From contig NZ_OMOH01000014.1 of assembly GCF_900289195.1 (NCBI RefSeq), positions 1 to 32,000 on the forward strand: 32,000 nt of DNA, read 5' to 3'. Source of the stretch: Propionibacterium ruminifibrarum (GTDB lineage Bacteria; Actinomycetota; Actinomycetes; Propionibacteriales; Propionibacteriaceae). Under the pieces are notes generated by a model, which ran no database searches, was not told where the DNA came from, and saw only the letters and a program-made list of their open reading frames with translations. Both the position numbers and the translations under genes were made by a program. Below are positions 2-10,455 of the stretch, piece after piece. Numbering within the stretch: the stretch's first letter is position 1; each line of letters opens with the position of its first letter.

Positions 2-286
2 ATCAGGGCCCTGGCCGACGGCGGCGAGATCACGGGCTGGCCTGCCGGCCGGTATGCCGAGGAACTCGCAGCGGCCGCCGGGACATGGCATGCCCGGGCA
101 TACCGGGACGGCCGACCCGGGGCGCTGTTCGGGGCAGTGAAAATGACCCGCCAGCCCCCCGAGATGAGATTCGTGTCCTACCACGACGCCCCACCCAACT
201 ACCTGGCCAGCGACTGGGAGGACGACATGTACTCAGGCGACGAAGATGTGCTGAGAACCGAACTAACCCGAATCTTCAAAGGTTGA
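2..286 (+). CDS. 3' end of a hypothetical protein, 5'-truncated by the window edge; possibly the immunity protein of a toxin module lying upstream of the window
   Basis: Frame 2 is open from the window edge to TGA at 284-286 (...RFVSYHDAPPNYLASDWEDDMYSGDEDVLRTELTRIFKG*). Third positions are GC-rich. It is absent from the ORF track because it has no start codon inside the window. Its C-terminal stretch loosely resembles aa ~80-140 of the 1653-2621 protein (PG.GA ... P.[YW]LAS). Confidence 0.45.
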   Translation: MRALADGGEITGWPAGRYAEELAAAAGTWHARAYRDGRPGALFGAVKMTRQPPEMRFVSYHDAPPNYLASDWEDDMYSGDEDVLRTELTRIFKG

Positions 287-330: not shown

Positions 331-636
331 GTGGGACAGGAAGCGAGGTCACGGGTAAAGGATGTGCTCTCCCACCACGAGGCCCTGCACGGCCCCGACC
401 GGGTCATCGGCGGCAACCCCGACAACTTCACTGGCTTCGGCACCGAAACCGTCCCCGGCAACACCGCCAACTCAGAAATGGGCCGACACTGGTCAAATTC
501 CGATACCGTACGAAGCTATAATCGCCGCATGGAGGACGCAGTTTCTGATATTCCGGAAGAGTTGCGCGGTGATGTTCGGGTGAATACGGAGTTTCTGGTG
601 AATGGTAAGACGACTAATTTCATTGGCCTGCCGTGA
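331..636 (+). CDS. Orphan polymorphic-toxin C-terminal domain, Ntox15 (PF15604)/Tde-DNase-like with an HxxD motif; no delivery or N-terminal region, probably not independently translated
   Basis: The translation ...KDVLSHHEALHGPDRVIGGNPDNFTGFG...NTANSEMGRHW...DIPEELRGDVRVNTEF contains H-G-P-D (nt 388-399) followed by GG and an N.S.G..W segment. As I recall, this is the signature of the Ntox15/toxin_43 family. The frame opens only after an in-frame TGA at 322-324. The nominal start is GTG at 331 with no purine-rich SD upstream (gttgtcttccctgatctcct). It is followed 16 nt later by small putative immunity genes. Confidence 0.55.
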   Translation: MGQEARSRVKDVLSHHEALHGPDRVIGGNPDNFTGFGTETVPGNTANSEMGRHWSNSDTVRSYNRRMEDAVSDIPEELRGDVRVNTEFLVNGKTTNFIGLP

Positions 637-652
637 TGAAGGAAGAAATGAG

Positions 653-1122
653 ATGGCTGGTAAACGGGTGCGCGAGTCGTGGGAGAAGTACGGTCGGCGG
701 GGTCGAGAGGTTGAGGCATTCGTTGGGCTGATGGATTCAATGTCTCATGATCAATGGGTTACTGTTGGCGAGACTGAGAAGAATAACGTTTTTGATGAAT
801 ACATGGGTGCTCTTCAGGAATGCAAGAAGATAAGTATTTCCGCTACTGTTGTAAAGGCGTTGTCTTCTTTGGGTGATCGTTACCGGCCCCAGTATGATGA
901 TGAGGCTGTAGGTCGGTATACGCGTGGGGGGTCCGTGATGCGAAGTCCATTGCGCCGTATATCGTGGGTATTGCCGACCGGCTGCCTGCGTGGGCTGTTG
1001 AGGTGATTCTGCGTCCGTTCGTGAAGGCTGGTGTGGACCTGTCCCCGGTGTTGCCTGAGGGCATGGACATAAGCCGTCCGCTGCCGCACGTCGGTGATGA
1101 TGACTCGCCGGTTGATGAGTGA
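653..1122 (+). pseudogene. Frameshifted paralog of the 1122-1568 gene (putative immunity protein, unrecognised family)
   Basis: ATG at 653 follows a GGAAG SD. The protein aligns colinearly with the next gene (MAGKRVRESWEKYGRRGREVEAFVGLMDSMSHDQW vs MVGKRVREPWEKYGPRGCEVVAFVGLMDSMSHDQW) up to ...GRYTRGG. The homologous reading then continues in the -1 frame (VRDAKSIAPYIVGIADRLPAWAVEVILRPFVKAGVDLSPVLPEGMDISRPLP...) to TGA at 1120-1122. The copy-to-copy offset is 469 nt before and 470 nt after the G6 run at 926-931, which means a net 1-nt deletion in copy 1. Confidence 0.6.
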
Positions 1123-1568
1123 TGGTCGGTAAACGAGTGCGTGAACCGTGGGAGAAGTATGGTCCGCGGGGTTGTGAGGTCGTAGCGTTTGTCGGCTTGA
1201 TGGATTCCATGTCCCACGACCAGTGGGTCGTGGTCGGCGAGACAAAGGATGATCTTGATTTCGATGAGTATGCTTGGGCTCTTGAGCAGTGTCTGGAAAC
1301 AGGCATTTCTGCTACCACTGAAAGAATGTTGGTTGCACTGGGAGATTGTTACCAGCCCCAGTATGACGATGAGTCTGTTGGCCGGTACACTCGTGAAGGG
1401 GTCTGTTATGCGAAGTCCATTGCCCCATATATCGTGGGTATTGCTGACCGGTTGCCGGTGTGGGCGGTTGAGGTTCTCTTGCGTCCGTTCGTGAAGGCTG
1501 GTGTGGACTTGTCGTCGGTGTTGCCCGAGGGTATGGACATAAGCAGGCCGTTGCCGGATGAGGCGTAG
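1122..1568 (+). CDS. Hypothetical 148-aa protein, intact copy of the tandem pair; putative toxin-immunity protein of an unrecognised family
   Basis: ATG at 1122 overlaps the TGA of the restored upstream copy (TGATG), suggesting translational coupling. The frame is intact to TAG at 1566-1568. Its position directly downstream of a toxin tip is the only functional clue. I recognise no known motif. Confidence 0.6.
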   Translation: MVGKRVREPWEKYGPRGCEVVAFVGLMDSMSHDQWVVVGETKDDLDFDEYAWALEQCLETGISATTERMLVALGDCYQPQYDDESVGRYTREGVCYAKSIAPYIVGIADRLPVWAVEVLLRPFVKAGVDLSSVLPEGMDISRPLPDEA

Positions 1569-1652: not shown

Positions 1653-2621
1653 ATGACTGTGCCGGGTTTTGGTCCTGATGCCAAGGAAGAGAAGATCAAG
1701 GCCCTGTACCAGAGGTTGGTCGGGTGGATGCGGGAGAACCGAGCCGATTACTTGCAGGCCGTGGTGCAGGCCGTGGGCGAGCGGCACGGCGGCTGGATCC
1801 GTTCGTACCACGACAATCGGCCCTACGACAATGTGGCACCGGCCGAGCTGTACGATCAGATGATCGCGCTGCGCAGCGTGCTGGCCGAGCCCGGCAGTGG
1901 CGCGTTCACCTACGCCAAGTTCGTCGTGGAGGTGGGGACCGGTACCCGTATGACGATGCGGCAGGACAGCCGCGAGCCCCAGCTGGATCCCCCCTACACG
2001 GCGCAGGACTGCGCCCGTGAACTGGAACTGTTCCCCCGTGATGATGGGCGCACCCCAACCTGGCTGGCCAGCCACGGGCAGCGCCGCGACGAGGTGACCA
2101 GCGTGAGGAAGATCGACGACCAGGTGCTGGAGCACTACCGGCCCCTCGTGCCCGAGGCGATCGGGGACCTGTGGAGCCAGTACGGCGTGGCCTATTTCGA
2201 TGACGGCATGGTGCGGCTGGTCGACCCGGCCCACGCCGTCAACCGGCTCCAGCGCGTGGCCCCTGCCGGCGACGACATGGTGCCGGTCTTCACCACGGCC
2301 CTGGGCGATGTCGTCTACTGGCGGGCCGGCCGGTTCGTGTTCTACGACTACCGGCACAGGACCTCCGGCGAGCTGGAGTCCAATGCTTTGGTGGCCCTGT
2401 ACATGCTGCACAGCGAGGATTTCCGCAACGAGTTCATGGACGGCCAGACCTACCGGCAGGTCGCCTGCCGGTACGGCATCCTCGACGTCGATGACTGCTT
2501 CGCCTACGTACCGCTCCTGCGGCTGGGCGGGCCCGAGGACGTGAACCGGCTCGACCCGTGCGAGATGTGGACGCACCTGGACTTCATCGCCCAGGCAACC
2601 GGCACGCCCAAAGAACCCTGA
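1653..2621 (+). CDS. Composite immunity-type protein: unknown N-terminal domain (aa ~1-145) fused to a GAD-like + DUF1851 (Tdi1-like) module (aa ~150-316)
   Basis: ATG at 1653 follows a GAGAGAGG SD. YRPLVPEAIGDLWSQYGVAYFDDGMVRLVDPAHAV fits my recollection of the GAD-like domain (PF08887). VPVFTTALGDVVYW...YRQVACRYGILDVDDCFAYVPLLRLGGPEDVNRLDPCEMWTHLDFI fits my recollection of DUF1851 / Tdi1 C-terminal (PF08906). Confidence 0.7.
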   Translation: MTVPGFGPDAKEEKIKALYQRLVGWMRENRADYLQAVVQAVGERHGGWIRSYHDNRPYDNVAPAELYDQMIALRSVLAEPGSGAFTYAKFVVEVGTGTRMTMRQDSREPQLDPPYTAQDCARELELFPRDDGRTPTWLASHGQRRDEVTSVRKIDDQVLEHYRPLVPEAIGDLWSQYGVAYFDDGMVRLVDPAHAVNRLQRVAPAGDDMVPVFTTALGDVVYWRAGRFVFYDYRHRTSGELESNALVALYMLHSEDFRNEFMDGQTYRQVACRYGILDVDDCFAYVPLLRLGGPEDVNRLDPCEMWTHLDFIAQATGTPKEP

Positions 2622-5623: not shown

Positions 5624-6874
5624 TCACCCGAAGATGTGGTGGATGGTCTCGATGATGATGTTCGGCAGGTTGTAGCCGAAGAAGGCGTCAGTGACCATGC
5701 CGTTGACCTCCACGCCCATCGTCGTCATCATGGCGGTCGCCTCGGGTGCGAAGATGTTGGCCAGCCACTCGACGAAGAACAGGAATATGGCGCTGGTGAT
5801 CAGGGTGCGGAACAGATTCCCCTTGCAGGCCAGTGCGATCATCGGGACCATGTAGACGATGACTGTCAGTACGCCGACCGGGAAATAAGTCATGTTGGGG
5901 ATGACGAAGGCGAACACGATTGACAACGGGATCATGAGAACGGTCGTCGTGATTGCTGTCGGATCACCGAGGGCAAGGGCGACGTCCATGCCGATGTTGA
6001 GTTCCCGGTCCTCACCGAGATGACGCTTCATGAAGGCCTGCGAACCCTCGCCGACAGTACTCAGACCCTCCATCATGACCGAGACCATGCGCGGCAGCAG
6101 GACGAGCGCGGCGGCGATGCCGATGCCCATGGCGAGCACGCCCTGCCAGCTCTGGCGGGTGAGCAGACCGAGGAAGACGCCGACGATGACACCGATGAAC
6201 GCCGGATCGCCGAAGAAACCGAGTTTCTCCCCGACCTTCTCCATCGACAGATCGATCTTGCGCAACCCGGGGATGCGGTCGATGAGCTTGTTGAAGACGA
6301 TGCCGAACGGCCAGGCGAACGAGATGAACGACAGGGTTGAGCAGGTCGTCCCCTCCAAGCCGTAGTACTCCTGCCAGTACGGGGCGATGACCTGGGCGAG
6401 CACCAGTGTGATGATGGCGAGGACCAGTACGATCCCCAGCCCGATCCACAGGTTTCCGGTCAGGGCGTAGGCCATGCTGCCCGGGATGAGGAAGTGGATG
6501 TAGTTCCAGATGTCGACGTTGAGCACATTGGTCCACTTCAGGGCGATCATGATGATGTTGATGACCACGATGATGAGAACGGCTGGCGCCGCGAAGGGGG
6601 CGGCCCACGAGGCCGCGCCGACCGCGGCCCAGCCGACGTCGACGGTGGTGAACCCGCCGCCCTGCAGACCGCGGTAGTACTCGATGGCCGGCTCAACGGT
6701 GGCCATGAGGGCATTGATGACCATGACCAGGCCGGAGAAACCGATGCCGATCATGAGGCCGGCGCGGATCGATTTCCCGATGCCCATGCGGAAGATGAGG
6801 CACAGAATGGTCATGACGATCGGGAGCATCACTGCTGCGCCGAGGTTCATGATGCCCTGAACGACGCTGAGCAT
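5624..6874 (-). CDS. PTS EIIC permease, galactitol (GatC) family
   Basis: 416 aa polytopic membrane protein. The N-terminus MLSVVQGIMNLGAAVMLPIVMTILCLIF... is typical of GatC-type EIIC. AGGAG SD. Confidence 0.9.
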   Translation of the reverse strand: MLSVVQGIMNLGAAVMLPIVMTILCLIFRMGIGKSIRAGLMIGIGFSGLVMVINALMATVEPAIEYYRGLQGGGFTTVDVGWAAVGAASWAAPFAAPAVLIIVVINIIMIALKWTNVLNVDIWNYIHFLIPGSMAYALTGNLWIGLGIVLVLAIITLVLAQVIAPYWQEYYGLEGTTCSTLSFISFAWPFGIVFNKLIDRIPGLRKIDLSMEKVGEKLGFFGDPAFIGVIVGVFLGLLTRQSWQGVLAMGIGIAAALVLLPRMVSVMMEGLSTVGEGSQAFMKRHLGEDRELNIGMDVALALGDPTAITTTVLMIPLSIVFAFVIPNMTYFPVGVLTVIVYMVPMIALACKGNLFRTLITSAIFLFFVEWLANIFAPEATAMMTTMGVEVNGMVTDAFFGYNLPNIIIETIHHIFG

Positions 6875-6917
6875 GGTTGTTCTCCTTCGGTGTGATCAGA
6901 ATTCGTGAGTGGCTGGT

Positions 6918-7217
6918 TCAGGCGTCGAGGACGGCCCGGCAGGTGTCCACGACCTGCTGGGCGACCTTGTCCTCGTTGATCCCGGAGATGAGGCCGAAGA
7001 CCTGCACGACGGGCTTGTCGATCGTGCCGGGGTACTTCGTCGTCACCATGACGATGTCGACGCTGTTCGCCAGGGACTGGATCTGCGAGACGGTTCCCTT
7101 GGTGATCTTGGCGGGAATGTTCGCCTCGGCGAGGATCTTCTTCACCTTCTCCTGGGCGACGGTGCTCGTGGCGATGCCGCTGCCGCAGGCGATGAGGATC
7201 TTGACTTCCTTGTTCAT
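6918..7217 (-). CDS. PTS EIIB component (GatB-like)
   Basis: 99 aa. KILIACGSGIATSTV contains the active-site Cys motif. GAGGAG SD. Confidence 0.9.
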   Translation of the reverse strand: MNKEVKILIACGSGIATSTVAQEKVKKILAEANIPAKITKGTVSQIQSLANSVDIVMVTTKYPGTIDKPVVQVFGLISGINEDKVAQQVVDTCRAVLDA

Positions 7218-7221
7218 TGCT

Positions 7222-8280
7222 TCACTTCTCCTCGGGGTTGGGTTTCAGAACGACCTTGAGCGCCTCTCCGGTGCGGGTCAGGTCGATTGCCTCGTTGATG
7301 TGGTTCAGGGGCAGGACGTGGGTGATGATCGCCTCGGCCGGGAACGCCGGGTCGATGGCGAGTTCGAAGGCGCGCTGCACCTGCATGCTGTTCGCGCCGT
7401 AGTGGCCGTAGATCCACAGGCTGTTGTAGTGCACGGTGTTCGAGTCGATCTCGGTCAGCGCCCCCTTGGGGACGCCGCCGAAGAAGACGACGGTGCCGCA
7501 CGGCCGGGTCATCGCCAGCGCCTGCTGCTGGCCGGCCGTCGTCGGGTTGGCCGAGATCGCCTTGTCGACGCCCAGCCCGCCGGTGAGCCGCCTGACCTCC
7601 TCGACGGGCTCGACCGTGCTCGAGTTGATGCGGTGGTCGATGTCGAAGGCCCCGGACTTGTCCAGGCGGTCCTGGGTCACGTCGATGAGGATGACCTTCG
7701 AGGCCCCGCGCATCCTCGACAGCACCGCCAGGAAGACGCCGATCGGACCGGCGCCGAGGATCGCCACGGTGTCCCCGAGCCTCACGTCGATGTTCTCGAC
7801 GCACGCGTAGGTGCTCGACAGGGGCTCGGCCAGGCTCGCCCGCACGGGGTCGACGCCGGCGGGCAGGGTGAAGGTTGCGCCGCGCTCCACCCGTTTGGCC
7901 GTGTAGGCGATGTACTGGGCGAAACCGCCCGGGCGGCTGGTGTAGGACTCGACGTCGGTGCAGTGCTCGTGGTGGCCGGCCCGGCAGTAGTCGCACTTCA
8001 GGCAGTGGGCCTCGGGGTAGACGTAGAGCCGCTGGCCCGGCTCGTAGGCGGTGACCCCGGGCGACACCTCGGCCACCGTGCCCACCACCTCGTGCCCGTA
8101 GATGTGGGGGTAGGCGCCCCTGCGGGAATCGGTCGTCAGGTTCCTGATGTCTGACCCGCACAGGCCGACGGCGTCAACCCGGAGGACGAACCCGCCGTCG
8201 GGGCACTGCGGCCTCGGCACCTGCTCGAACCTGATGTCGCCGGGACCGTGCATGACGGCCGCGTCCATCACGTCTGTCAT
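7222..8280 (-). CDS. Zn-dependent medium-chain alcohol/polyol(-phosphate) dehydrogenase
   Basis: Start chosen at ATG 8280 (MTDVMDAAVMHGPGDIRFEQVP...) with a GAGGAG SD. The ORF-track start at 8427 adds an Arg-rich, non-coding-looking extension. GLCGSDI, the GHE motif (YGHEVVG) and a Cys cluster (CLKCDYC) are MDR-family hallmarks. Confidence 0.9.
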   Translation of the reverse strand: MTDVMDAAVMHGPGDIRFEQVPRPQCPDGGFVLRVDAVGLCGSDIRNLTTDSRRGAYPHIYGHEVVGTVAEVSPGVTAYEPGQRLYVYPEAHCLKCDYCRAGHHEHCTDVESYTSRPGGFAQYIAYTAKRVERGATFTLPAGVDPVRASLAEPLSSTYACVENIDVRLGDTVAILGAGPIGVFLAVLSRMRGASKVILIDVTQDRLDKSGAFDIDHRINSSTVEPVEEVRRLTGGLGVDKAISANPTTAGQQQALAMTRPCGTVVFFGGVPKGALTEIDSNTVHYNSLWIYGHYGANSMQVQRAFELAIDPAFPAEAIITHVLPLNHINEAIDLTRTGEALKVVLKPNPEEK

Positions 8281-8367
8281 CGATGAGCTCCTCGTCCGCC
8301 GTCGCCGTCGACGGCACGTCTTCTGGGTTTTCGTGTTCCGGCACCGATCCGTGCGGCCCGGGGCACG

Positions 8368-8482
8368 ACACAATCCTTGTGTTGCGGTGACCATGTCGCA
8401 TACTTGTTTCTGCCGCAGGGGCTGCAACGACTGATTGCCACGCCCGCGGCAGATGATTGTTCCTTGCGGGGCGGCAACAATC
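8368..8482. promoter_or_regulatory. Cluster of ACAAT/ATTGT palindromes in the divergent PTS-operon/regulator control region
   Basis: ACACAA-TCC-TTGTGT (8368-8382, perfect 6-bp arms). GATTGTT (8455-8461) / AACAATC (8476-8482) inverted repeat. An additional GATTGCC half-site at 8432-8438. Confidence 0.35.
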
Positions 8483-8535
8483 GTGTGCCGAGCAGACCGG
8501 GGGCGTTGCTACCGTGAGCCCGGGAGGTGTCACAG

Positions 8536-10455
8536 GTGATCCTTTTCTCCGAACGCCAGTCTCTTCTACTGGAATTGCTCAGCGAGCTCGATCACGTCAT
8601 CACCGGCCGTGAACTCGCCGATCTTCTCGGGGTGAGTGCACGGACATTGCGGTACGACATCTCCCGGACCAATGGAATGGCCAAGGCCGAGGTCATCGAG
8701 GCGACTCCCAAGGGATATCGCCTGAATCGTCCGGTTTATTACGACCTGGTCGCCAGGAACTCCGACCTGGGCACCGAGCTGGGGCACCAGGAACGGATTC
8801 TGCTGTACCTCTTCAACGCCCCGGTCACCGATGTCTACGACATCATGCGCGACTGCTATCTCAGCGAGTCCGTCACGCGGGCGGCACTGCAGCACCTCGT
8901 TCCGAAGGCGGCCGAGTACGGCCTGTCCCTCACGACCTCGGGGGCGCGTGTCGAGCTGTCCGGCGACGAACTCGATCTGCGGCGGCTGCTCGGCGAGCTC
9001 GTCCACAATGCGATGGACGTCGCCGTCGGGCGTACCGAGAAGATGAAGCGCTACCTGCCGGACGTCGAGTTGTCCGTGGTGGAGGCCGAGCTGCGCGCGG
9101 CCGTCGAGGAGACCCGCGCCGACATCAACGACATCCAGCTCTCCAACACCGTCGTCAGCCTCGCGATCTGCCTGCAACGCTTCGACCACCCACCGGCCGC
9201 GCCGCACGTGCCGCGCGCCAGCGGCACCGGGGCCGACGAACTGACCGGGCGGCTTCTCGCCAGGCTCGGGAGGGCCTACCCGGAAAGGACCTTCGCGCCA
9301 TCGGACCGCGAGTACGTGCGGGCCCTCCTCGGCCTCGCCCTCGACCATGGCGTGACATCTCCCGGCGGCCGGCCCGACGCCGAGGACAGCGGCGCGGCGG
9401 AAGCCATCCGGGCCTGCCTCGACGAGACCATCGGGCACTTCAACCTCGAGGTCGACTACGGGAAACTGTCCCGGAACATCTGCGACCACGTGCTGCGCCT
9501 GGTGGCCCGCCCCCGCAAGCTGCCCTACTTCCGCAACAACCTGCAGGAATCCCTGCGGGCCCGCTCGCCCTTCCTGTACGACGTGGCCGTCTACCTGGCC
9601 GACAGGCTGTCGAAGGCGCTGACCATCAACTTCTCCGACGACGAGATCGGCCTGCTCGTCATCTACCTGGGGCTGCACACCGAGCAGCCTCCAACCGACG
9701 AACGCGCCATTTCGGCGGTGGTGGTCTGCCCGCGCTACCACGCGCTCCAGGACTGGCTGCTGGCCGAGCTCGTCGAGAGATTCCCCGACCGGCTGCGGAT
9801 CGTCGACATCGTGGCGAGCAACCGGGAGGCCGACGCCATCGAGTGCGACCTGGTCATCACCACGACCGACGAGGCCCCCGGCGTGCACCCGAGCGTGCGG
9901 ATCAGTGCCGTGCTGTCGGAACTGGACTGCACAGCCGTCGACGCCGCGATCCTGCGCGAATTCTCCGCGAAGATGCGCACCCGCATGGCCGCCATCATGT
10001 CGAAATTCCTCGACCCCGGCCTGTTCTTCGTCGGCCCCTCCTTCCCGGACGCGACGAGCACGATCCATTTCCTGTCCGGCGCCCTGCGCGACAAGGGATA
10101 CGTCCCGGAGGAGTTCGAGGACAGCGTCCTGCTGCGCGAGACCTATTCCCCGACGGCCTTCGCGCGCAGATTCGCGCTGCCGCACTCCATGGATTTCATG
10201 GCGCACGAGACGAAGGTCGCCGTGCTCATCCCGTCCTCGCCCATACCGTGGGAGACGGCCGATGTCAGCCTTGTCTTCATGCTCGCCATCAACGGTGCCG
10301 ATTACGACGAATTCATCCAGTTCTATCAGCCACTCATCAGCCTCCTCTACGATCCGCGGCTCTTCTCGGAGCTGAAAAGGGTCACCGATTTCGAGGCCTT
10401 CGCGCAATTGCTGGGCAGCCAACTCGTTGCCCCCAACAGGGATCAGCTGGGCTGA
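8536..10455 (+). CDS. PRD-domain PTS regulator (MtlR/LicR/BglG-family activator with an N-terminal HTH and a C-terminal EIIA-like domain)
   Basis: HTH region ...ITGRELADLLGVSARTLRYDI..., central PRD-like repeats, and a C-terminal ...PHSMDFMAHETKVAVLIPSSPIPW... EIIA-2-like segment. GTG at 8536 lies 8 nt after the GGGAGG SD; GTG at 8527 (ORF track) is an alternative start. Confidence 0.85.
   Translation: MILFSERQSLLLELLSELDHVITGRELADLLGVSARTLRYDISRTNGMAKAEVIEATPKGYRLNRPVYYDLVARNSDLGTELGHQERILLYLFNAPVTDVYDIMRDCYLSESVTRAALQHLVPKAAEYGLSLTTSGARVELSGDELDLRRLLGELVHNAMDVAVGRTEKMKRYLPDVELSVVEAELRAAVEETRADINDIQLSNTVVSLAICLQRFDHPPAAPHVPRASGTGADELTGRLLARLGRAYPERTFAPSDREYVRALLGLALDHGVTSPGGRPDAEDSGAAEAIRACLDETIGHFNLEVDYGKLSRNICDHVLRLVARPRKLPYFRNNLQESLRARSPFLYDVAVYLADRLSKALTINFSDDEIGLLVIYLGLHTEQPPTDERAISAVVVCPRYHALQDWLLAELVERFPDRLRIVDIVASNREADAIECDLVITTTDEAPGVHPSVRISAVLSELDCTAVDAAILREFSAKMRTRMAAIMSKFLDPGLFFVGPSFPDATSTIHFLSGALRDKGYVPEEFEDSVLLRETYSPTAFARRFALPHSMDFMAHETKVAVLIPSSPIPWETADVSLVFMLAINGADYDEFIQFYQPLISLLYDPRLFSELKRVTDFEAFAQLLGSQLVAPNRDQLG

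Follow-up and report, generated by a model that had tools for sequence, protein, structure and literature searches.

At the start of the 32,000-nucleotide (nt) stretch of Propionibacterium ruminifibrarum DNA analysed here (the window; forward strand of contig NZ_OMOH01000014.1), two tandem genes at 653-1568 lie between the remnant of an Ntox15 DNase toxin gene and a Tdi1-type immunity gene. Both genes encode members of one family of ~150-residue proteins, for which we use the label X. Judging from gene order and sequence comparison, X is probably a second, so far unrecognised immunity protein that is linked to the Ntox15 toxin tip and acts beside the generic Tdi1. The window itself holds a decayed orphan module, in which the toxin tip is truncated and the first X copy (X1) is frameshifted; the second X copy (X2) and Tdi1 are intact (Table 1).

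Table 1 Features at the start of the window (positions in nt; aa, amino acids; ORF, open reading frame; GC3, GC fraction at third codon positions)
Feature	Position	Strand	Remarks
3' end of an ORF, 94 codons, GC3 0.77	2..286	+	frame-2 ORF, cut by the contig start
Orphan 5'-truncated Ntox15 DNase toxin tip	331..636	+	Pfam Ntox15 positions 78-138 of 153, E 7.6e-6
X copy 1	653..1122	+	156 aa if intact; carries a 1-nt deletion; pairs with the orphan tip
G6 homopolymer, frameshift site	926..931	+	intact allele is G7
X copy 2	1122..1568	+	intact 148-aa paralogue; short-tail type that ends each array
Tdi1-type Ntox15 immunity gene, 322 aa	1653..2621	+	PF08906 (T6SS_Tdi1_C) E 2.3e-11; PF08887 (GAD-like) E 1.2e-6

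The X family and its linkage to Ntox15 toxin tips

The strongest indication of an immunity role, which the earlier note on this DNA had proposed from the pattern of the two copies, comes from genomic context: in many loci, X directly follows every Ntox15 tip, orphan tips and remote lineages included. In the window and in L001, L005, L006, L012 and L018-L024, X starts 17-22 nt past the stop codon of a toxin or an orphan tip, and in L027 the toxin end and the X genes overlap. The same chromosomal site was found in a Propionibacteriaceae metagenome-assembled genome (MAG) with matching metagenome contigs (L001-L004), in P. australiense (L006-L008) and in P. acidifaciens (L012 and L022-L024), and it is followed, as in the window, by ABC1 kinase, PadR and PTS genes. 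The order at this site runs from genes for EccD, WXG100/ESAT6-like, DUF6177 and DUF6507 proteins, through a 1129-1145-aa toxin that ends in Ntox15, to two to four X genes, the first of them 17-20 nt past the toxin stop codon, and one 322-aa Tdi1-like gene. By its predicted gene content, this arrangement is an ESX/type VII polymorphic toxin locus, and the window would represent the distal end of such a locus in a Propionibacterium-like actinobacterium.

X also travels with orphan tips and across divergent lineages. The metagenome assemblies L018-L021 contain a full toxin, X, a nearly complete orphan Ntox15 tip, two further X genes, a degenerate orphan tip, a frameshifted X and, at the distal end, a single Tdi1. 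Since orphan tips and X genes alternate in these arrays, it is the tip-plus-X unit that repeats. Among the divergent lineages, L010 (X 53% identical) has Ntox15, one X and Tdi1, L017 (X 29% identical) has Ntox15 (E 6.7e-20), X and a 191-aa Tdi1, and in L027 and L013 (X ~21-23% identical) an Ntox15 end (ALHGPDRIVGG ... NVRFTVNGKVW*) is followed directly by X, which is present in tandem copies in L027. No recognisable Tdi1 was found downstream of X in L013. The gene after X in that locus (648-1001) encodes a 117-aa protein without a family match in the place of Tdi1, which could be another immunity-type partner.

In the window, the two X copies are arranged head to tail with 77% DNA identity (336/437, E 5e-93), and alignment of the paralogues reveals conserved N- and C-terminal blocks that flank a diverged middle. 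Copy 1 starts 17 nt past the stop codon of the tip and is preceded by a Shine-Dalgarno-like sequence, AAGGAAG. One G added to the G run restores its 156-aa frame, and the restored stop codon TGA (1120-1122) overlaps the ATG of copy 2 (1122-1124) in a TGATG junction. The earlier note had described the tandem paralogues with conserved ends, the one-base repair and the coupling to copy 2, and its account of both copies proved accurate in every detail. Copy 2 reads without interruption from its ATG to its stop codon and is an outlier of the family, since it differs at 7 of 81 near-invariant columns (R18C, E21V, E56Q, A69M, S71V, S72A and R76C) where its close relatives differ at 0-5. Copy 2 contains four cysteines. 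Together with the distal ~200 nt of the toxin tip, both X genes form a low-GC island at ~450-1600 (48-58% GC, against 68% for the whole window). The GC3 of X is 0.48-0.60 versus a host-like 0.88 for Tdi1, and this composition fits a tip-plus-X module with a history apart from that of Tdi1.

X carries no annotation and has a very narrow distribution, with about 30 clusters in total, nearly all of them from Propionibacterium. Of these, 26 came from a word-indexed search of 5.8 billion proteins, in which the named clusters all belong to P. acidifaciens, P. australiense or a Propionibacteriaceae MAG. A HMMER scan of 1.84 billion representatives added a few remote relatives (P0029, P0031 and P0033-P0035), a profile including the remote relatives added one more homologue, and among the GTDB species representatives X occurs in two Propionibacterium species only. 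The hosts are presumably Propionibacterium species of host-associated communities, where, we assume, such toxins shape competition between strains. Neither X copy in the window has a Pfam or NCBIfam match at E ≤ 1 or a PADLOC match, and profile searches with remote homologues likewise assigned no family. An X profile found no significant match among PDB sequences (best E 0.31, to an unrelated xylanase), and Foldseek searches with the X model gave a best E of 2.3 in PDB, with a template modelling (TM) score below 0.3, and of 1.7 in BFVD. The earlier note had been unable to place the family and had suggested profile and structure searches; these returned no match, to a housekeeping family or otherwise, so that the family is indeed unrecognised.

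AlphaFold2, run with a 21-sequence alignment, yielded a confident model of X (predicted local distance difference test score 85, predicted TM score 0.82) in which seven helices form a domain of ~125 residues. The C-terminal segment, from residue 126 onward, is non-helical in the model, highly conserved and modelled with high confidence to about residue 140. No transmembrane segment was found in X. The protein is acidic, as are the toxin tip and Tdi, so that charge does not discriminate between them. The confident helical model, the lack of a transmembrane segment and the acidity would fit a cytoplasmic binding protein. The X alignment has 35 invariant columns, and a signature, L-x-P-F-x-x-A-G-[VIL]-D (residues 121-129, window 1482-1508), is found at the equivalent position in all homologues and includes G127, the sole invariant column of the broad X alignment. 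This signature resembles the P(phi)4GG motif of Tdi proteins, with P, four residues, G and then V/I/L for the second G, and the fold is unrelated.

The conservation of the X flanks is maintained at the protein level. Among ten X gene copies from the window, L001, L006 and L012, codons 1-40 showed a nonsynonymous divergence (dN) of 0.08, a synonymous divergence (dS) of 1.35 and a ratio of the two (omega) of 0.06, and the C-terminal 41 codons (105-145) a dN of 0.05, a dS of 0.54 and an omega of 0.09. In codons 41-62, dN rises to 0.38, five-fold higher than in the flanks, with an omega of 0.21. Recent gene conversion was rejected as the cause of the conserved flanks, where dS is 0.5-1.35, and positive selection in the variable patch was rejected, where omega is 0.21-0.30. 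X genes are old and functional, and their flanks are kept by purifying selection on the protein. Exchange of segments is visible as mosaicism: near-identity between the window and L005 extends to nt 1195, gives way to sharp divergence in the middle of copy 2 and returns at the 3' block.

The decayed module in the window

The earlier note had recognised an Ntox15-like tip at the head of the X pair. The tip does match Pfam Ntox15 and retains the HxxD / PD(X)3GG active-site motif (HGPD at 388-399 and PDRVIGG at 394-414), but it is a truncated orphan. Homology to the intact toxins of L005, L001, L006 and L012 (blastn/tblastn) begins at nt 358 or 340, which corresponds to residue 98 of the last 195, and the onset of similarity at nt 358 is abrupt, about ten residues before the HGPDRVIGG motif. 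Since similarity to the toxins is confined to nt 358 onward, the toxin gene seems to have had its 5' part replaced in the window strain. The tip has no start, and nothing is left of the ~950-aa trafficking region or of the N-terminal half of the nuclease, from which we infer that the tip is inactive.

Next to this tip, the sole frame-breaking difference between copy 1 and copy 2 is a 1-nt gap at the G run (GGGGGG). Left unrepaired, copy 1 meets a stop codon in frame A at 1006, and the conserved C-terminal half is read in a different frame (928-1122). With the G added, the 156-aa product matches P0003, encoded on the Logan metagenome contig L005, at 100% identity. Over 540-1195, L005 differs from the window at 3 of 656 bases, comprising two substitutions and the indel in the G run, where L005 has G7. 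On L005, the same X1 allele is intact beside an uninterrupted toxin frame, of which the last 341 codons are present before the contig start cuts it. Because X1 is intact beside a toxin frame in L005 and broken beside the truncated tip in the window, its decay fits relaxed selection on an immunity gene after the loss of its own toxin. A real frameshift would stop translation of copy 1 at 1006, 116 nt short of copy 2. Expression of copy 2 may then fall as well, since no obvious Shine-Dalgarno sequence precedes it and its usual start lies within the TGATG overlap.

It is quite possible, although not our first choice, that the missing G is a sequencing or assembly error at the homopolymer and that copy 1 is intact in the organism, which would then have two functional X genes. 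Consistent with such an error, a single G is missing from a G7 tract and no second lesion is visible in copy 1, the remainder of which differs from the intact L005 allele by two substitutions that leave the restored protein identical; the window also sits at the end of a contig, and assemblies are at their weakest in repeat-rich regions such as this one. However, X copies are often broken elsewhere, and there the damage is certainly real. In L018, L020 and L021, three independent assemblies each with its own single-nucleotide polymorphisms, the X that follows the degenerate orphan tip shows one and the same 1-nt deletion. The third X copy of L001 (9499-9972) is a nonsense pseudogene in an otherwise intact array, with an in-frame TAG in place of a conserved Gln (SQD*W), and the gene call at this position is likewise shortened in L002-L004. 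P0026 is a further frameshifted X, broken at a different site. Moreover, in the window it is the partner of the truncated toxin tip that is broken, as is also seen in L018-L021.

The G run had also been proposed as an on/off switch, that is, a contingency tract that turns X1 on and off through slipped-strand mispairing (phase variation). We regard this as highly improbable. G6 and G7 alleles of one gene both exist, and G7 is also present in two intact copies of L001, but the tract is interrupted (GGTGGGG or similar) in ~20 of the 29 X copies examined, on which ground a conserved contingency tract was rejected. In addition, one copy has an in-frame G6 followed by A, the lesions of the other broken copies differ in site and kind, seven G are short for an efficient switch, and just one G6/G7 pair was observed.

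X and Tdi1 as candidate immunity proteins

The gene downstream of the X pair, described earlier as Tdi-like, indeed combines GAD-like and T6SS_Tdi1_C matches. Its residues 151-318 make up a GAD-like/DUF1851 module that aligns to the Phocaeicola vulgatus Tdi1 chains in PDB (8fzz_B, E 9.9e-14; 8g0k_B, E 1.7e-7), with PLLRLGG (nt 2511-2531) placed opposite PTLSMGG and PALVAGG of the solved chains. The P(phi)4GG motif of Tdi mimics and displaces the active-site helix of the toxin (PMC13556189). Because of the Pfam matches and the alignment to solved chains that includes this motif, the gene is a bona fide canonical Ntox15 immunity gene. Its residues 1-150 (window 1653-2102) form an extra domain that is conserved in Propionibacterium and L010; neither the solved P. 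vulgatus chains (195-202 aa) nor the 191-aa Tdi1 of L017 possess it. This extra domain has no Pfam or PHROG match, and a relationship to X was rejected (hhalign probability 0.1%). As to which neighbour neutralises the toxin, a point on which the earlier note had been undecided, the canonical Tdi1 is thus identified by its motif, and X would be a second, different immunity protein.

X behaves like an immunity gene because it follows each tip, is amplified into strings of divergent copies, exchanges segments and is kept beside dead toxin fragments. We propose that X binds the Ntox15 tip encoded just before it and so protects the producer and its kin, and that X, alongside the single canonical Tdi1 that closes the array, would provide two-tier or dual immunity. 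The conserved N- and C-terminal blocks would form the fold and probably also offer homology for recombination between paralogues, and the variable patches (residues ~41-62 and ~83-104) may tune recognition of a variable patch, HWSxxxxVxxFNRRMxxAxxxIP, in the C-terminal subdomain of the toxin. In the window strain, the Ntox15 tip has been severed from its toxin gene, leaving the last ~98 residues, its partner X1 carries the 1-nt deletion in G7, and the intact X2 and Tdi1 would persist as orphan immunity genes against the toxins of neighbours.

A finer division of labour is conceivable but more doubtful. The mobile, amplified and variable X copies may supply allele-tuned, high-affinity binding to the variable C-terminal subdomain of the toxin, with Tdi1 carrying out the generic step of active-site mimicry. 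If so, two functions that are combined on one Tdi protein in Bacillota would be divided between two genes, and the phage homologues of X (PHROG 8332) would be candidate nuclease inhibitors.

Several observations weigh against an immunity role for X. The canonical P(phi)4GG Tdi1 in the same operon could suffice alone, and mycobacterial prophage Ntox15 toxins have been described with Tdi alone (10.1101/2022.04.27.489733). X and the toxin tip both carry variable patches, and a strict one-to-one pairing of their types was rejected, since one tip type stands beside two different X types among the few independent modules available. Omega is below 1 everywhere, with no signature of an arms race, and a Foldseek search of PDB revealed no structural similarity of X to any solved immunity protein. 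Three remote homologues are also found away from toxins: that of L009 is isolated, that of L026 is a fused double domain on a short contig, and the third, P0034, belongs to an actinobacterial prophage (L014 2873-3589; also L015 and L016), where integrase, cI/Cro-like and Xis-like genes precede it in the early region. This protein of 238 aa combines a proline-rich linker with a Cys/His-containing tail and matches PHROG 8332, a family of unknown function, at E 1e-7, and P0035 and P0029 match it weakly; matches to PHROGs are limited to these remote X homologues. A tblastn search of 50,697 phage records with X and P0034 gave no match.

Alternatively, X could be a helper specific to the tip, with Tdi1 as the sole inhibitor: it would serve as a chaperone, holding the DNase domain for export by ESX, or as a bridging factor for Tdi1. 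This is rather unlikely. A canonical Tdi1 with the active-site mimic is always or nearly always in the operon, the invariant columns make the X flanks extremely conserved, as expected if X binds a conserved partner, toxin types and X types do not pair strictly, and type VII toxins are known to depend on small helical partners (PMC9600955). However, it would be unusual for a chaperone to be amplified into a string of divergent paralogues, or to be kept next to truncated orphan tips that are incapable of export. The helper genes known from type VII systems are found upstream of the toxin, where WXG100-like, DUF6177 and DUF6507 candidates are already present, and L013 has X with no recognisable Tdi1.

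Known families were compared with X as well. X is not a member of the Tdi1 family by the searches used, as it has no GAD-like/DUF1851 profile match and no match to a solved Tdi1 chain, and neither profile nor fold searches linked it to EsaG/DUF600, Imm*, SUKH, CdiI or another catalogued immunity family. A WXG100-type secreted substrate was likewise rejected, as there is no PF06013 match and the model is a seven-helix domain of ~125 residues; the conserved X tryptophan, judged by eye, stands in a Q-W-V-x-V-G context, not W-x-G.

Relation to known systems and other features of the locus

The esaG and tipC strings downstream of Firmicutes type VII toxins are the nearest precedent for X. These are tandem immunity paralogues with conserved 5' and 3' blocks that drive recombination (PMC9484751). 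Like esaG (DUF600, against EsaD of Staphylococcus aureus) and tipC (Streptococcus), X occurs as strings of non-identical paralogues, placed immediately after a type VII nuclease toxin (PMC9484751), with conserved 5' and 3' blocks, a variable middle, mosaic exchange and copy numbers that differ between strains, and it is retained in strains without an active toxin. Unlike them, X has no sequence or fold similarity to DUF600 or TipC, its host is an actinobacterium with an ESX-type system (EccD), and its strings, into which orphan tips are inserted in some strains, have the unrelated Tdi1 as their last gene. The diversifying-immunity pattern that the earlier note read into the two copies is therefore seen in this layout, but neither in positive selection (omega 0.2-0.3) nor in a strict pairing of X with tips.

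The locus shares its Ntox15 domain, HxxD / PD(X)3GG motif and P(phi)4GG Tdi1 with the Tde/Tdi pairs of Agrobacterium, Bacteroidales, Bacillota and mycobacterial prophages, and the X loci are comparable to the cassettes of ESX-secreted Ntox15 and Tdi in Mycobacterium abscessus prophages (10.1101/2022.04.27.489733). The descriptions of Tde/Tdi consulted here name Tdi downstream of the toxin and mention no intervening gene (PMC10470768, PMC13556189, 10.1101/2022.04.27.489733), whereas here one to four X genes, and sometimes orphan tips, lie between toxin and Tdi1, and Tdi1 carries the extra 150-aa N-terminal domain. Immunity to a single DNase through two unrelated proteins was first demonstrated in 2026, with Tdi5a and Tdi5b against Tde5 of the Pseudomonas aeruginosa type VI secretion system (PMC13392607). 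As in that case, two structurally unrelated candidate immunity genes are located immediately downstream of one DNase toxin, and one partner is confined to toxin loci while the other is also found in non-toxin contexts. The two cases differ in toxin fold (beta-beta-alpha-Me versus Ntox15), secretion system and phylum, as well as in that one partner here is amplified and travels with orphan tips and that its function here is inferred. The X arrays also recall orphan cdiA-CT/cdiI and rhs-CT/rhsI modules, in which 5'-truncated tips, each with a small gene behind it, are likewise repeated downstream of a full toxin gene and the distal modules decay progressively. Here, other protein families and another secretion system are involved, and a single shared Tdi1 closes the array in place of one immunity gene per module only.

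Ntox15/Tdi are among the best-studied DNase toxin-immunity pairs, and mobile tip-plus-X modules with a single Tdi1 are a new form of the known polymorphic toxin-immunity architecture; the frameshift or pseudogene aspect itself is ordinary. It is the unannotated X, not the canonical Tdi1, that duplicates, diversifies, moves with orphan tips and decays on toxin loss. The locus would be a natural, conserved case of dual immunity in a different phylum and secretion system from those of the Pseudomonas example. If X binds the toxin, it would add a new immunity fold and offer a tractable system in which to ask why two immunity proteins persist and how specificity and generic inhibition are divided between them.

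Among the remaining observations, a promoter and terminator scan gave counts no different from shuffle expectation. In L012 (P. acidifaciens DSM 21887), the full-length toxin at 6073-9502 is split over frames 1 and 2 near residue 811-813 (tblastn), which reflects either a pseudogene or a sequencing error. The ORF upstream of the toxin tip (2-286) is unrelated to X, the toxin or Tdi. Searches of 5.8 billion proteins found no homologue of it besides the window's own gene calls, it has no Pfam or NCBIfam match, and nothing similar was found at any related locus. Its database gene call, of 94 aa, starts at window base 2, because of which we place the beginning of the contig at the window start. 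Possibly this ORF encodes immunity to another toxin tip, one that took the place of the Ntox15 tip.

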